The notes beneath the pieces are model-generated. The model had not been told where the DNA came from. It saw only the letters and a program-made list of their open reading frames with translations, and did not search any database. From positions 61,318,001 to 61,382,000 of the forward strand of contig OX597819.1 in NCBI GenBank assembly GCA_951406725.2: a stretch of DNA of 64,000 bases, in the 5' to 3' direction. Each line of letters opens with the position of its first letter. Within the stretch, counting starts at the first letter, position 1. The stretch comes from Octopus vulgaris (lineage: Eukaryota). The translations under genes were made by a program, and so were the position numbers. This document shows, in pieces, positions 6,170-55,850 of this stretch.

Positions 6170-6650
6170 CATATACATATAGATAGATAGAAAGAAAGAT
6201 AGAAAGATAGTCAGATATTTATATATATATGCACGTATACACACACACATACATATATATACGTGTATGTGTGTGTGTGCACATTCGCTTTTACTGACGT
6301 GGTTTTATGCACGTAAGCCAAACATGAACTAGTTCACTTACATAACATGTACACATAAAATCACGCACAAACACAACCTCGCAGATAATCATATACATAT
6401 ATTTACGCATACATGCACATACACATATATAGCGGCAAACATTACACAACATATATGAAAACATTAGCCTTCTCAGACATTATACATGCAAACACACAAA
6501 TACACATGAATGCATAAATATAAGCTTTTTTAATTAGGTTGAACTTAAAATTACAAGGCCGAGCCTTTGTGATAGAACCAGACAAACGTGTATGAGTGTA
6601 CGTATGAGTGTATGTATGTATGTATGTATGTATGTATGTATGTATGTATG

Positions 6651-6750
6651 TTCATTATTCAGTTTTATTTCAAGATTTCTTGCCAATAGAGAAAGAGCCG
6701 GTTTCTAACCTAGATCCAAGGCTCTTTCATTGGAATTTCAACATCAACAG
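6651..6750 (-). mobile_element. Retroelement 3' end with (CATA)n tail; near-identical copy at 7088-7190, related end at ~3060-3101 (+)
   Basis: tcttgaaataaaactgaataatga followed by (CATA)n in three places. Confidence 0.6.
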
Positions 6751-6789
6751 GATATTTTTGTATGTATGTATATATGTACTAATGCTATA

Positions 6790-7085
6790 CTATACATACC
6801 ATACTAATCAAATCTGTCGGGCATGTGGAAGAGAGTGTAATTCGGCAGGAGGACTTAAACGACATGCAAAGGTACATGAAGCCCAGTTACAACTACAGCC
6901 AGCTATAACCAGTAAAGGTTTTAGTTGCCAATTTTGTACAAGACATTGTAGATCTTTAGCTGGGCTAAAAAGTCACATTCGATCACAGCACTAGTAACAG
7001 TTAAGCTTCGTGCAATGGCCATACTCGATAACGAGGTGGCAGCCATAATGTATGTATGTATGTATGTATGTATGTATGTATGTAT
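6790..7085 (+). mobile_element. 5'-truncated RTE-clade LINE 3' end (two C-terminal C2H2-type fingers, short 3' UTR, (TGTA)n tail)
   Basis: CRACGRECNSAGGLKRHAKVH and CQFCTRHCRSLAGLKSHIRSQH* resemble the CxxCxRxCxSxxGLxSH end of RTE ORFs; stop at 6994, then ~55 nt UTR and a tandem tail. Confidence 0.7.
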
Positions 7086-13834: not shown

Positions 13835-14332
13835 AGGCGGCGAGCTGGCAGAATCGTTAGCACGCCGGGCGAAATGCTTAGCAGGATTTCGTCTGCCGCT
13901 ACGTTCTGAGTTCAAATTCCGCCGAGGTCGACTTTGCCTTTCATCCTTTCGGGATCGATTAAATAAGTACCAGTTACGCACTGGGGTCGATGTAATCAAC
14001 TTAATCCGTTTGTCTGTCCTTGTTTGTTCTCTCCTTGTGGATAGTAAAGAAACAGGTATTTCGTCTGCCGTTACGTTCTGAATTCAAATTCCACCGAAGT
14101 CGACTTTGCCTTTCATCCTTTCGGGGTCGATAAATAAAGTACCAGTTACGCACTGGGGTCGATATAATCGACTTAATCTCTTTGTCTGTCCTTGTTTGTC
14201 CTTTCTGTGTTTAGCCCCTTGTAGGTAGTAAAGAAATGGGGTCGATAAATTAAGTACCAGTTACGTACTGGGGTCGAACTAATCGACTGGCTCGCTTCCC
14301 CCAAAATTTCAGGCCGTGTGCCTAGAGTAGAA
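13835..14332 (+). mobile_element. SINE family A with internal head-to-tail repeats
   Basis: Head ggcggcgagctggcagaatcgttagc, then the body repeated through the aagaaacaggtatttcgtc junction at ~14050. Confidence 0.9.
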
Positions 14333-16255
14333 TATTTTATTTTAAAAATTTGATAAACTGCTTGTTAGCTTCAATCATAATAGCAACAGCAGTAACAATA
14401 AAGACGGCAAGTATAAATCAGAATATAAAATAAATATCAAACGGTTGATACGCATTATATCCAAAGCTCAGAGTATGTGCCTCAGTTTCATCGAAGCCAT
14501 ATGCTAAAGGTAGAGGTACGAATAATAAAGTTTGTACGAAATCATATACTAAAGGCTGGATCAGGCGGTAATGGAAATTAAACCAGCAAAAGTATATTTG
14601 CTTTAGCTATCAGCATACAGCAACACCATGAAAAGAACACGAACCCTCAGTTTCACAACTAAGACGGTGGAGGACACTACCGATTGAACCAATTGTAATT
14701 CTGAACCGTCGCCTGATTGTCTGCTTATTTATTTTTAATGTTGGTTAGTTATTGATTTTTAAATGCTCAAAGACGAAAAGAAAATCTCTCTATATTTACA
14801 TTTAGATGCATGTAACATCGTTATCAATGTACCCCCAATATACCACAGTCATAGTCATCATAATGTATTGTTGAAGAGAAACAAGGACAAGAAAATTAAG
14901 AATAATATAAAACAACAACAGCAGCAGCAGCAGCAGCTGCAGCATAAATTTGAGAGTACGGATGTTGAAAAGCATCTTTCGTGTTTAAAGTTAGCAATAC
15001 TGGAGCAGTATTACTTTCTTTGTGGTCATCAATAATCGAACGATGCCTTTATAGCGTGATCAATATTCTGTAGCCATGTCTAAAGTAGTCTTTATCAGCT
15101 CTAGTCCAGACGTATGCACGCCATCAATCATAATCGGTACCGTACTAAAGACGTCAGAAATATCTCTGGCTTGGGTTTTAATCTAGGCTACCGGACTAAA
15201 CCTACGCCTCATCTCTTTAGGGAAGAAGTAGGACACAGCAGTGGGCGGTAACATATTTAATGCCACAATAAACTAGAATATGGGGAGACACCCCCCACCG
15301 CCCAGATATTAAATTATGAAAATTAATTCAAAATAGAATACTGTTATGAAGTCTGTTTGATCTTTGGTAGTATGGTGACAACTCTGGACATGTTTCGGTC
15401 TTATTAAACTTCTTCAGCAAAACTGCGAGATCAATGGAAGGTCTTTTTGGTCTTTGGAAGAATGAAAGCAACACCGGACATATTCCGGTCCAGAAGTTAT
15501 CCTCAAACTGGAGAGCTGGCTTGAATGTCTGCAAAAGAGTAAGGTCTAAGAATCCACCCCCGTCCAGGTTCATGATGGCAGGATTTGAATGCGGAACGCA
15601 ATGAGATATCCGGATCGAACTTCTCAGTTACCTCCACTGATCGGTTTTCATTTTTCTTTGTTTTCTCCGATAAAATCGTCCATTAGCTGAGATATGGTAC
15701 ACACACACACACACATACACACACACTCGCGCACATACGCCGATCAGCTAGGCTACAAATCATTGTGGAAGTTTGAGAGAAAGCCCAAGACCTACCAAGT
15801 GGTATGTATGCGTGTGTGTGTGTGTGTGTGTGTGTGCGTGTGTGTGTGCGTGTATATGTGTGCAATGACCTTGAGCTAAACTGTATCAGCTCCAAATCCC
15901 GCTCAGTGAATCACATCTCTCTTCATACCCAAACAAAGGAATCTATACATGGTCGTTCAATCTGCTAAAAATCTGTTTGTTTTATTTTGTTTGTTTTTTT
16001 TTTTTAAATATCAATCTTTACTTACACTTATATCGAAAAACAAAAATAAGAAAACGGGGAAAAAAATCTATCAATCGTTGCCAGATTCAGGTAAGCGACC
16101 TAATTATCTAAGCTGTTTGTCAGCTTCAACTTCACTGTTTGATGATGATGGTGATGATGATGACGTTGATAGTTGGGGTCAGGGTCATGATGATAATGCT
16201 GATGATAATGTTTGCTTTGGTGGTATTGTTGTTGGTGGTGATGATGATGATAATG

Positions 16256-35149: not shown

Positions 35150-35910
35150 TAATGGTTTCAAATTTTGCCACAAGTGGAGGGGATAAGTCGATTACATCAA
35201 CCCCAGTGTTTCACTGGTACTTAATTTATTGACTCCGAAAGGATGAAAGGCAAAGTTGACCTTGGCGGAATTTGAATACATAACGTGAAGACAGATGAAA
35301 TACCTATTTCTTTACTACCAACAAAGGGCTAAACACAGAGAGGACAAACAAGGACACACAAACGAATTAAGTCGATTATTTCGACCCCAGTGCGTAACTG
35401 GTACTTATTTAGTCGACCCCGAAAGAATGAAAGGCAAAGTCGACCTAGGCGGAATTTGAACTCAGAACGTAGCGGCAGACGAAATACCTATTTCTTAACT
35501 ACTCACAAAGGGCTAAACACAGAGGACAAACAAGGACAGACAAAGGGATTAAGTCGATTATATCGACCCCAAGTGCGTAACTGGTACTTATTTAATCGAC
35601 CCCGAAAGGATGAAAGGCAAAGCCGACCTCGGCGGAATTTGAACTCAGAACGTAGCGGCAGATGAAATACCGCTAAGCATACTAACGATGTTGCCAGCTC
35701 GCCGCCCTTAATAATAATTTTGCCACAAGGACAGCAATTCTGTGGGGGGGGGGGGGGATGAGTCAATTTAACAGTTACTTATTTTATCGATCCCGACAGG
35801 ATGCAAGGCAAAGTCAGCCTCAGAGGAATTTGAACTCAGAACGTAGAGACGGACGAAATGTTGCTAAGTATTTTCCCCACCGTGCTAACGATCCTGCTAG
35901 CTCACCGCCT
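35150..35910 (-). mobile_element. SINE family A trimer plus an extra copy
   Basis: Repeated body joined at gaaatacctatttc (~35297 and ~35481). Confidence 0.88.
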
Positions 35911-39649: not shown

Positions 39650-40050
39650 TAGGGGGCTAAACATAGAGGGGACAAACAAGGACAAACAAATGGATTAAGT
39701 CGACTACATCGACCCCAGTGCGTAACTGGTACTTAATTTATCGACCTCGAAAGGATGAAAGGCAAAGTCGACGTCGGCGGAATTTGAACTCAGAACGTAG
39801 CCGCAGACGAAATACCTATTTCTTTACTACTCACAAGGGGCTAAACACAGAGGGAACAAACAAGGACAGACAAACGGATTAAGTCGATTACATCGACCCC
39901 AGTGCGTAACTGGTACTTAATTTATCGACCCCGAAAGGATGAAAGGCAAAGTCGACCTCGGCGGAATTTTGAACTCAGAACGTAACAGCAGACGAAATAC
40001 GGCTACGCATTTCACCCAGCGTGCTAACGTTTCTGCCAGCTCGCCGCCTT
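39650..40050 (-). mobile_element. SINE family A dimer
   Basis: Junction gaaatacctatttc at ~39809. Confidence 0.88.
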
Positions 40051-45424: not shown

Positions 45425-47507
45425 ACATACAAGAACTAAAGGAGGATATCCAAAAATTCTGTCGTAAGTTACGAATCGTAGAATTCTTCACAAATAGAAG
45501 TAATAAGATTGATGAATCCCTAGTAAAGAATAAATCAAATTTCACCCCACCAAAAAGAAGAAATAGTTATTTTGACCAATACATTGCTATCCTGTCAAAT
45601 TTCCCCTTTAGACGCAAGACTAAAGACTAATGTTAGGCCAAACATTAACAAATCCGAAATGTCTGCACTTAAACGTATAAAAAAAGATCAAACAATAATA
45701 ATTAAATAAGCAGATAAAGGGGATGCAATTGTTATTATGGATGCAGAATACTACAAGGATTTGGTTGAGGACCAACTGAAGGACACAACCTTCTATTGTG
45801 AAATTCCTACAAATATAGACCACTACATCATGAAGAAGATCAACAACCTTGTTTTAAAACACAACTCACCTACTGATAATGAAATAGACTACATCACCAA
45901 TGTCGAGCCTAAATCCAGCAATTTCTACGGCTTACCGAGACTACATAAATCAAAAGATACTTAGCATGCAGTAAAAAAAAAAAAAAGTGAGTCTATAAAA
46001 TTACTGCATCCAAAAGACTTAAAACTCAGACCTATTATAGCTGGCCCTGCATGCCCTACCCACCGTCTATGCAATTTTATTGATATTCTTTTGAAACCAC
46101 TATGTACCTACATAACCGGTTTCATCCGTGATGACATCGACTTACTGTTCTATCTTCCCAAAACAACTGAAACAAATTCACGTCTACCTACTTTTGATGT
46201 GGTAAGCCTTTACACGAATATTCCGCATGATTTAGGAATAAAGGCGGTTAAATACTGGGTAGAAAAACATAGAGAAATGATTCCCAATATTAGACACAGA
46301 CTTATTCTGGAAAACAACACATTTTTCTTCAATGGAATGAATTACATCCAAATTAAAAGCACGACGATGGGAAAGAGGTTTGCTCCCGTTTGCGCAAACT
46401 CTCTAACGGGATATCTAGAAAAATAACTCTACCAAGAAGTATAGGAAAACTATAGCACTGGATTTTGAAATTATATTGAAAAGGCATGGAAGAGATACCT
46501 TGACGATTGCTTCATAATCTGGACAAGATATCTAAATACTCTGGAAGAGTTTAATATTCTCCTGAACAACCTACGCCCATCTCTCCAATTTACAAAGGAG
46601 ATGAGTTGTACCAAATTACCATTCCTAGATATGATGGTAATTAAAGAGGACACCACCATTACCCCCAGATATATACTACAAACATACGGAGATGCATCAA
46701 TACCTGTATTTTAAGTCGTGCCATTCATGACATACAAAACGCAGAAGAATTTGTACTATTGTAGAAGATGCAAATATCAGGAACAATCGCCTAACAGAAT
46801 TAAGTGAATTTTTGCTCAAACAAAAATACCCATCTCTACTTATAGAAAATGGTATACATCGGGCAATAAAAATACCCAAACAACTGAGGACAACCCAAAG
46901 AAGAGGAAAACAAGAACAGGTCATACCATTTATAGTAACACACAACCCATGTCAATAGAATATCTTCAACATTGCCAAAGCAAATCTACCAATCATTGCT
47001 CAAAGTAATGAATTAAAAGATATAATCACAGATCAAGCTATAGTGCTTAGTAAGACAGCCTAAAAACTTGAAAAAATTATTAACAAAAGTAAAGTTTGAC
47101 CTTAGCAACAAAGACCAATCATTCACTGTATCTAAAGGCAATGAAATCTGGTGTGGCACATGCCAATTCATACATAGCGGCCGATATATGAACACAAAAT
47201 CTGGAAAAATATTCACAAACGCAAATATGAACTGCAAAGTTTAATTTACTACATCAAATTCCCAAATTGTGAAGAACTATATGTAGGTCAGACTGGAAAT
47301 GCACTATCAGAACGTTCACATGTGCACCGACAGCAAATTAGAGAGTCAGATGCCTGTCAGATACCTTTGAGTAACCATCTAGCAATATGCAGTCGGAAAA
47401 TATTAATATTTTCCATTCTACAAACTATACAGTCCAAGTGAAATTGAGAGAAAAATCAGAGAAAAGAACTTTATTAATGAATTCCAACTCAAGCTAAATA
47501 AACGATA
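45425..47507 (+). pseudogene. Penelope-like retroelement (RT + GIY-YIG endonuclease), disrupted; Cys-rich linker suggests a Neptune-like clade
   Basis: ADKGDAIVIMD, FYGLPRLHK, LRPIIAG, FDVVSLYTNIP, STTMGKRFAP, WKRYLDDCF (46496), LPFLD, WCGTC linker, IYYIKFPNCEELYVGQTG (47245); multiple stops and frameshifts. Confidence 0.93.
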
Positions 47508-52792: not shown

Positions 52793-53583
52793 AATCCTTT
52801 CTACTATAGGCACAAGGTCTGAAATTTTTTGGTGGGGGAGACCAGTCGATTAGATCGATCCCAGTGTTTCACTGGTACATAATTTATCAAATACCTATTT
52901 CTTTACTACCCACAAGTGGCTAAACACAGAGGGGACAAACGAGGACAGACAAACGGATTAAGTCGATTATATCGATCCCAGTGCGTAACTGGTACTTAAT
53001 TTATCGACTCCGAGAGGATGAAAGGCAAAGTCGACCTAGGCGGAATTTGAACTCAGAACGCATTTCGTCCGACGTGCTAACGTTTCTGCCAGCTCGCCGC
53101 CTTTAAGAAAAATATTTATTTCTTTATTGCCCACAAGGGGCTAAACACAGAGTGGACAAACAAGGAGAGACAAACGGATTAAGTCGATTATATCGACCCA
53201 GTGCGTAACTGGTACTTAGTTAATCGACCCCGAAAGGATGAAAGGCAAAGTCGACCTCTGCGGAATTTGAACTCAGAACATGGCGGCTGACGAAATACCA
53301 CTAAGCATTTCGCCCGGTGTGCTAACGTTTCTTCCAATTCGCCGCCTTTAAGAAAAATATTTATTTCTTTATTGCCCGCGAGGGGCTAAACATAGAGGGA
53401 ACAAACAAGGACAGACAAAGGGATTAAGTCGATTACATCGACCCCTGTACGTAACTGGTACTTAGTTAATCGACCCCGAAAGGATGAAAGGCAAGTCGAC
53501 CTCGGCGGAATTTGAACTCAGAACGTAGCTCTCAGATGAAATACTGCTCAGCATTTCGCTCGGCGTGCTAACATTCTGCCCGC
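52793..53583 (-). mobile_element. Array of ~3 SINE family A copies
   Basis: Repeats joined by cgccgcctttaagaaaaatatttatttc. Confidence 0.9.
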
Positions 53584-54560: not shown

Positions 54561-55020
54561 CTCTTTTACATGTTTCTGTCATTTGACTGTGGACATGCTG
54601 GAGCACCGCCTTTATTCGAGCAAAGCGATCCCAGGACTTATTCTTTGTAAGCCTAGTACTTATTCTATCGGTCTCTTTTGCGAACCGCTAAGTTACGGGG
54701 ACGTAAACACACCAGCATCGGTTGTCAAGCGATGTTGGGGAGACAAACACGAACACACATACATACATATATGCATACATATATGTATATATATATATAT
54801 ATATAGCAATAATAATTCTCTAAAAGGGATATAGACAGTAACTGCTCGATAACATAAGGGACTAAAGCCATCTGAATATGGCTAGGGACAGGGCAGGGTG
54901 GTGGGGGTGTTACTGTTGCATTTAGCCCCAGGCGAACATCGACGTCACCAGAAAGGCTCGACACCGTCACGGTGCCCTAAACCTGCAAAGGGAGGTAATT
55001 CCCCGATGAAGCGGAAACCA

Positions 55021-55066
55021 CACACGGACCATGGTTTCAAGGTGTATTGCCTATCATCGGCGTGTG
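55021..55066 (-). ncRNA. Type I hammerhead ribozyme motif (copy 1)
   Basis: Reverse complement of 55322-55367. Confidence 0.82.
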
Positions 55067-55321
55067 GTAGGCCTCCGCTTCCTCGACGAATTCTCACCAT
55101 GCAGGATTTTCTTATATAGATTTTCAAGCAAAATACATTTGCTGATTTCGAAAATCTGTTCGAAAGCAATAATAATTCTCTAAAAGGGATATAGACAGTA
55201 ACTGCTCGATAACATAAGGGACTAAAGCCATCTGAATATGGCTAGGGACAGGGCAGGGTGGTGAAAATCTATATAAGAAAATCCTGCATGGTGAGAATTC
55301 GTCGAGGAAGCGGAGGCCTAC

Positions 55322-55367
55322 CACACGCCGATGATAGGCAATACACCTTGAAACCATGGTCCGTGTG
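55322..55367 (+). ncRNA. Type I hammerhead ribozyme motif (copy 2)
   Basis: cacacg CCGAUGA u agg caauaca ccu u GAAAC caug GUC cgugug: 6-bp stem I, stem II agg/ccu, palindromic ACCAUGGU stem III, GUC site at 55359-55361. Confidence 0.82.
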
Positions 55368-55533
55368 TGGTTTCCGCTTCATCGGGGAATTACCTCCCTT
55401 TGCAGGTTTAGGGCACCGTGACGGTGTCGAGCCTTTCTGGTGACGTCGATGTTCGCCTGGGGCTAAATGCAACAGTAACACCCCACCACCCTGCCCTGTC
55501 CCTAGCCATATTCAGATGGTTTAGTCCCTTATG

Positions 55534-55572
<39 letters not shown>

Positions 55573-55850
55573 TATATGTATACAGGATGAGCTTCTTTCA
55601 GTTTTCGTCAACCAAATCCACTCATAAGGCTTTGGTCGGTCCAAGGCTATAGTAGAAGACACTTGCCCAAGTAGAGGGAATTATTATTATTATTATTATT
55701 ATCACTGAGGGTGATAGATTGACAGAATTCGTTAAAGGATCGAAAAAAAAAATGCTTTGCGGTATTTGTTTCGGTTATTTACATTCTGAATTCAAATCCT
55801 GTCGTTGTCAATCCAATTTGGTAGACAGAAACTAAAAGAAGCCCGTCATA

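Follow-up and report, generated by a model that had tools for sequence, protein, structure and literature searches.

Background

Non-LTR retrozymes described by Cervera and de la Pena (2020; PMC7229834) have units of 220-240 nt in coral, 350-390 nt in mussel and 330/350 nt in axolotl, and highly self-paired retrozyme circles were already published there. Self-paired circles and branched folds are likewise recorded for this class in PMC7761336. According to the discussion of PMC7229834, predictions leave the ribozyme of animal circles free to fold, and some unknown means must restrain it. Both that paper and a 2026 preprint (bioRxiv 10.64898/2026.07.22.740005) propose Penelope-like elements as the movers of retrozymes. 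Insertions of Penelope-like elements, as described by Craig et al. (2021; PMC8557442), consist of a partial tandem, an adjacent inverted 5'-truncated copy and a one-ended tail of 30-40 bp, and their targets are biased towards (TA)n. Concerning the ribozyme itself, palindromic stem III and action as a dimer have been published for metazoan type I hammerheads (PMC4209133). A natural U4C core change reportedly lowers in vitro activity considerably, yet the viroid carrying it stays infectious (Perreault et al. 2011; PMC3088659). A U-U at the base of stem II has precedents in the same article and in the axolotl HHR_Amex2 (PMC7229834).

The locus described here lies in a 64-kb stretch of Octopus vulgaris DNA (64,000 nt of contig OX597819.1, from position 61,318,001). 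This whole stretch is called the window and all coordinates refer to it.

Anatomy of the locus and of the insertion

The locus carries a 360-nt non-coding repeat unit, arranged as a partial tandem and an inverted copy inside a TA microsatellite. Its parts are as follows.

54759..54804, no strand: left half of the (TA)n-rich target microsatellite, within a host repeat
54805..54848, minus strand: tail of 44 nt, at one end only, equivalent to the beginning of the following unit; the inverted copy terminates where it matches 54849
54849..55208, minus strand: a complete unit of 360 nt (54805-55164 if permuted differently), with 47% GC (0.469) and stop codons in each of the six circle frames
55209..55263, minus strand: 5'-truncated upstream copy that completes the partial tandem
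55262..55537, plus strand: inverted copy of the unit, truncated on its 5' side to 276 nt and ending in (TA)n; its identity to the direct copy is 99.3%
55538..55582, no strand: right half of the target microsatellite, again (TA)n, after which the host repeat resumes at about 55583

Segments 55209-55263 and 55165-55208 together form a 99-nt exact direct repeat of 54805-54903 at a spacing of 360 nt. The minus-strand direct copy as a whole runs from 55263 to 54805 (459 nt) and is a 1.27-mer, longer than one unit. (TA)n adjoins both ends of the insertion, and a single host repeat supplies both flanks, one half each. The flanks are co-linear in 10 of 14 non-self pairings with other copies of this repeat, across a gap of 23-107 nt that is mostly CA/TA repeat. 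A target duplication is unreadable within the microsatellite. The locus thus carries the whole insertion signature of Penelope-like elements (partial tandem, inverted truncated copy, one-ended tail and microsatellite target), the movers proposed for retrozymes. The unit also lies within the size and GC range of retrozymes (about 150-450 nt, GC under 50%) and occurs in head-to-tail repeats and in many copies. An endless ORF on the 360-nt circle was considered and is ruled out by the 2-8 stops in each frame, and ARAGORN, used in the search for a tRNA head, returned 0 tRNA genes in the window.

Both genomic copies cross the predicted ribozyme cut site unbroken. Since both copies span this site and the direct copy exceeds one unit, the template of the insertion was not a cut linear monomer. 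It was a circle or an uncut multimer, and the data fit either. The genomic end of the unit (54849) sits 178 nt 3' of the predicted cut (55026/55027), almost opposite on the 360-nt circle. There is one hammerhead motif per strand at the locus, and the tandem of two ribozymes by which the 2026 preprint recognizes an active element is absent here. Because each strand has a single ribozyme, the present locus would not release a monomer and is likely a dead-end, inert product. If transcription read through the locus, the RNA would fold back upon its inverted repeat of 276 nt and would not form the rod described below.

Partial tandem repeats with units of 172-245 nt, all of one common host repeat, also occur at 13882-14199, 35180-35671, 39653-40000 and 53060-53580; the motif scan found no hammerhead in them.

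A type I hammerhead motif with a U4C core

The elements of the motif in the inverted copy are listed here.

55319..55368, plus strand: type I hammerhead motif
55319-21, plus strand: UAC bulge
55328-34, plus strand: core CCGAUGA, with U4C at 55329
55336-38/55346-48, plus strand: stem II of 3 bp with the loop CAAUACA and a U-U at its base
55350-53, plus strand: GAAA

The palindrome ACCAUGGU occupies 55353-55360 on the plus strand, and the predicted cut follows C55361. Stem III consists of two pairs closed by a palindromic tetraloop. The three-way junction, the open stem I, and GAAA and NUH in register are those of a type I hammerhead. The canonical core CUGANGA is replaced by CCGAUGA in both copies, a change left unmentioned in the earlier note that had reported the hammerhead. 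Apart from this change the core, stem I and the palindrome are unaltered in a family that varies at many other places, and the U4C core is the single unusual point of an otherwise known class. The UAC/U bulge and the CAAUACA loop presumably resemble the Schistosoma-type loop 1-loop 2 contact.

With a relaxed descriptor the window gave 3 hits, and 60 shuffled windows gave 0. Rfam returned 0 matches at the gathering score and no hammerhead family at E up to 10; among its other families, at the same E limit, it returned no other ribozyme and only miRNA-type hairpins far below their gathering scores. Folding programs, which ignore tertiary contacts, place stem I at 0.2-0.5, stem II at 0.08 and stem III at 0.00 in the predicted ensemble, and forcing the ribozyme fold costs a predicted 7.4 kcal/mol. 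The self-complementary stem III had been taken for the kind used by hammerheads that cleave as dimers. This agrees with the published metazoan cases (PMC4209133) and with the prediction that two copies co-fold through the 8-bp palindrome at -71.6 kcal/mol, 7 lower than the -64.6 kcal/mol of two monomers.

A second, weak hammerhead-like motif lies at about 15375-15427 on the minus strand, with a canonical core, a short stem III palindrome and a G-U-rich stem I. It folds worse than shuffles (z +1.69) and is either due to chance or decayed. PMC6908138, a literature match to the core motif, was set aside as irrelevant.

The rod and the predicted fold of the whole unit

Stem I of the motif is continued by a long imperfect stem, the rod, which is present in both copies. 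The rods and two neighbouring hairpins are given below.

55283..55406, plus strand: rod in the inverted copy, a predicted extended helix I of 32 bp capped by the hammerhead motif
54982..55105, minus strand: the second rod with its hammerhead motif, no different in sequence from the plus-strand one; the cut is predicted between 55027 and 55026
55413..55427, plus strand: possible 6-bp hairpin just 3' of the rod, absent from MFE structures; its sequence recurs in diverged sister contigs
54866..54883, minus strand: 6-bp hairpin in the 3' part of the unit, included in the predicted circle MFE; its sequence recurs in diverged sister contigs

The earlier note had placed the hammerhead at the tip of a long viroid-like rod, and every rod helix that it named is present in the sequence at 55283-55406. 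These are stem I (55322-27/55362-67), a 12-bp helix with two G-U (55307-18/55369-80), and the helices 55302-05/55382-85, 55296-300/55387-91 and 55283-88/55401-06, to which two short helices that it did not name are added. The rod totals 38 predicted bp including stem I and 32 outside it; 3 are G-U. Over the 129-nt stretch 55282..55410 the MFE is -59.6 kcal/mol, with z -5.79 (-5.93 in a repeat run) and 0 of 200 dinucleotide shuffles as good. Pair probability is 0.9-1.0 for most pairs outside stem I. A competing register lowers it to 0.2-0.7 in stem I and in the innermost two pairs of the 12-bp helix.

As a control, 4260 windows of 129 nt from both strands of the 64-kb window were folded. Among the 3218 of higher complexity, the rod energy is 4.37 SD below the GC trend as against 4.53 for the best grid window, the rod frame being hand-picked and off the control grid. 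Among the 22 best control windows, each compared with 30 shuffles, the strongest z values were -7.1 and -6.7 (one locus), -5.75, -5.69, -5.57 and -5.31, and TA tracts occur in three of the five strong-folding control loci listed. The rod exceeds the shuffle expectation, but its z alone is not unique within the window. Its arms alone are more stable on the ribozyme strand (-46.3 kcal/mol) than on the antisense (-35.5 kcal/mol), and the description of a hammerhead motif at the tip of a long imperfect stem is supported.

The description as a viroid-like rod is not supported for the whole RNA: the rod covers 124 of the 360 nt, and the motif is on one polarity. The predicted 360-nt circle (-113.9 kcal/mol, z -4.22, 67% of bases paired) consists of one long arm and a multibranched remainder. 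Its antisense reaches z -2.39, with 4 of 200 shuffles as good. Fixing the rod and shuffling the rest leaves the circle at z -2.28 (1/100 as good), while with the rest fixed and the rod shuffled it is at z -4.07 (0/100 as good). The 3' 176 nt of the unit are no better than shuffles (z -0.26). The linear monomer starting from the predicted cut reaches -120.5 kcal/mol (z -5.17, 0/200), and its first 45 nt are predicted to pair with the 3' end region. Since both ends of this monomer would be paired together through the rod, the rod likely acts as a clamp. The rod itself is ordinary for the retrozyme class.

The two additional hairpins reported in the earlier note both lie outside 55282..55410. The one at 54866-54883 belongs to the predicted circle structure and the one at 55413-55427 does not. 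The plus copy of the former (55504-55521) is short of one C, and the spelling quoted for it occurs in minus-strand copies only.

Copies of the family in other sequencing runs

Half or more of the words of the unit were found in 20 of the 24 listed runs (8 studies). Contigs of 4 runs from 4 studies, including X1, X7, X18 and X20, were aligned; one of these runs may be the source of the window itself. The family data are contigs, from which strand, ends and circularity are not readable, and none of the 24 runs is on record as RNA, X1 being RNA at most by guess. The head-to-tail joint (55164 to 54805) is crossed by contigs in all four runs, and a single contig wraps the whole unit in X1 (368 nt), X18 (407 nt) and X20 (390 nt). 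A wrapped contig has the same appearance whether it comes from a circle or from a DNA tandem array, and these contigs would imply that arrays or circles exist elsewhere. In these data no locus bearing two tandem ribozymes was observed directly.

Run X7 contains 1489 contigs, 718 of them at 99% or more identity and 51 under 90%. From this number and identity the family appears to be young and of high copy number. Summed depth in X7, which is not a copy number, is greater over the 3' part than over the hammerhead part and would fit 5' truncation or shared 3' ends. Position 55059, the mirror of core position 4, is covered in the four runs and no other letter is found there at 3% of depth or more, so that U4C is the dominant state of the family and not decay of this copy. 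Rfam did not see this core here, and descriptors that require CUGANGA would miss it.

Six substitutions and one deletion pass 3% in the four runs. At 55098/55099 the locus departs from the family majority; with the majority letters the outer helix would grow from 6 to 9 bp (by eye, unfolded). The substitutions at 55092 and 54899 change A-U to G-U, that at 55092 coming mainly from one contig (depth 3.4). The substitution at 54979 accounts for about half the depth in X7 and disrupts a terminal U-G predicted with probability 0.49, and 54981 is an unpaired position. Divergence is low, and none of the six represents a two-sided compensatory change. The G-U pairs and internal loops of the rod had been interpreted as a sign of selection on one RNA strand. 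The 3 G-U against 0 A-C oppositions suggest selection on the ribozyme strand, but this part of the claim stands on a one-sided p of 0.125, the antisense of the 129-nt stretch also beats shuffles (z -4.27), and the substitutions add no paired changes to it.

Runs X1 and X7 also contain diverged sister families that share both small 3' hairpin sequences, and one of them apparently shares the region of the head-to-tail joint. Judged by eye in single contigs, some of the hairpin changes preserve the pairing of the ribozyme strand, and one costs the second hairpin its closing pair. Some diverged contigs share parts of the unit and then continue into other sequence.

Pattern scans for relatives yielded 13 metagenome and 42 viral loci, whose likeness to the unit goes no further than the pattern itself or a short and weak match; 4 further viral loci are without stem I, and two scans of GTDB genomes gave 0 and 0 loci. 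One marine metagenome scaffold carries, at 1518-1545 on the minus strand and just before an ORF start, a canonical type I hammerhead with the same U-U and AGG/CCU stem II. This locus (L003) is otherwise unrelated to the unit.

A decayed Penelope-like element in the window

A decayed Penelope-like retrotransposon lies at 45430-47505 on the plus strand. It begins at a TA/GATA tract and comprises an RT, a remnant of the cysteine linker and, at the C terminus, a GIY-YIG region, with stops and frameshifts. It is 45-70% identical to mollusc-type proteins. Among the matches listed for its RT, the highest identity is that of a protein from Octopus sinensis (70% across 83% of the query), and most of the named matches are from bivalves. 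This element indicates that enzymes combining RT and GIY-YIG once existed in this genome. The unit has no significant DNA similarity to it, and an autonomous partner homologous to the unit was not found in the window. No ORF adjoins the unit, and 120 RT-family proteins compared with the window gave no match near it, all matches falling at 45-47 kb.

An open frame at 6608-6994 on the plus strand has two C2H2 zinc-finger-like motifs at its end; it may be an exon, or else the 3' end of a retrotransposon ORF.

Proposed cycle and alternative explanations

We consider that the unit is probably a non-LTR retrozyme moved by Penelope-like enzymes, and that its rod is an extended helix I which would clamp the cut ends for circle ligation. 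Head-to-tail arrays elsewhere in the genome would be transcribed, and two ribozymes would cut the transcript slowly, aided by pairing of their palindromic stems III. The rod would keep the monomer's 5'-OH end next to its cyclic-phosphate end while a host ligase seals the circle. The weak core (U4C, the U-U at stem II and a two-pair stem III) would stop the lone circle from reopening. A Penelope-like RT/GIY-YIG enzyme would then nick a (TA)n tract and copy more than one turn, and copying beyond one turn would leave the partial tandem, the inverted copy and the tail. Weighing against this reading are the lowered in vitro activity reported for U4C, the low predicted occupancy and energetic cost of the active fold, the missing Rfam match, the lack of two-sided substitutions and the pair broken at 54979.

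We advance with greater reserve, as a possible but doubtful extension of this cycle, that the family is a spreading retrozyme in which a fixed slow hammerhead, a dimer-only stem III and a 38-bp clamp act together, so that only multimers are cut, the circle stays closed and Penelope-like copying proceeds on the opposite side. If so, it would answer how animal retrozyme circles avoid reopening, the locus would be a clean footprint of Penelope-driven retrozyme insertion, and standard CUGANGA searches would overlook whole families. A fixed weakened core would in any case be a natural test of the question of ribozyme restraint raised in PMC7229834.

The same element might instead carry a crippled or dispensable ribozyme, with uncut multimers as templates of the Penelope-like RT and a rod that serves recognition or stability or is a relic. 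A U4C share of at least 97% of depth, the low predicted occupancy of the active fold and the unbroken cut site in the genomic copies are compatible with this. So are the Naiad elements, which spread without canonical hammerheads according to PMC8557442, and the results of the 2026 preprint, in which 1 of 9 predicted retrozyme dimers of Xenopus was cleaved in vitro and 8 were not. Against it stand the unaltered remaining core, stem I and palindrome in a family so variable elsewhere, and the activity, reportedly sufficient in vivo, of the U4C viroid (PMC3088659). We regard this reading as unlikely, if worth keeping in mind.

Two other origins can be considered. The unit might be only the truncated pseudo-LTR of an autonomous Penelope-like element, with the rod as the decayed trace of an old DNA-level inverted duplication. 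Penelope-like elements do routinely produce short truncated copies and inverted repeats (PMC8557442), motifs paired on opposite strands at distances of 100-700 bp are known (PMC4209133), the antisense of the rod folds well, and diverged contigs run from parts of the unit into other sequence. Its 5' end, however, joins its own 3' end both here and in the four runs, with wrapped contigs in three of them. This joint, the missing adjoining ORF and RT match, and a motif that departs from the minimal Penelope type of PMC4209133 in its short stem II and bulged stem I make this origin improbable. A viroid-like replicon is defined by ribozymes on both polarities. The hammerhead motif of the unit is on one polarity only and its predicted fold is branched; its copies are very many, near-identical and made of DNA, and the insertion anatomy is of retrotransposon type. 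No relative came from the viral or metagenome contigs of the pattern scans. The DNA footprint of a viroid-like RNA that replicates from RNA to RNA (a retroviroid-like element) is for these reasons very improbable, even though the size of the unit, the extensive pairing of the predicted circle and the better-than-shuffled antisense circle would suit it.

Comparison with known systems

The retrozyme moved by Penelope-like enzymes, which we favour, is close to several described systems. Like the metazoan non-LTR retrozymes of PMC7229834, the octopus unit is non-coding and of 360 nt, with GC under 50%, one type I motif per unit, a head-to-tail joint and a self-paired predicted circle. It differs from them, as described, in its family-wide U4C and in the structure of the locus, a 1.27-mer with an inverted copy and a tail but no array, and it is known here from sequence alone. 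It shares with the axolotl HHR_Amex2 the two-pair stem III with a tetraloop and the U-U at the base of stem II.

The partial tandem, inverted copy, tail, (TA)n and hammerhead within the repeat are those of non-autonomous Penelope-like derivatives (Li, Clavereau and Pollet 2026; PMC8557442). Li, Clavereau and Pollet argue from co-occurrence and pLTR homology in vertebrates, while the present case is one of insertion anatomy in an invertebrate. The hammerheads of PMC4209133 have in common with ours the palindromic positions around loop 3, the predicted use of dimers and the opposite-strand copies a few hundred bases apart. In their description stem II is long (6-8 bp) and rests on a G-C pair, and stem I is short, whereas in the present motif stem II has 3 bp and stands on a U-U mismatch, and stem I has 6 bp and is extended by 32 bp.

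We found no description of this family in the open literature on cephalopod hammerheads, retrozymes or Penelope, or on U4C; repeat databases and subscription journals lie outside this scope, and the supplement of PMC7229834 may show mollusc families. The same core change is known from the natural U4C viroid hammerhead (Ambros and Flores 1998, cited in PMC3088659), which is weak in vitro and sufficient in vivo. There it is a variant of an infectious plant RNA, whereas here it is the dominant state of a high-copy animal genomic family. The class of the element is known; its family-wide U4C variant appears to be new.
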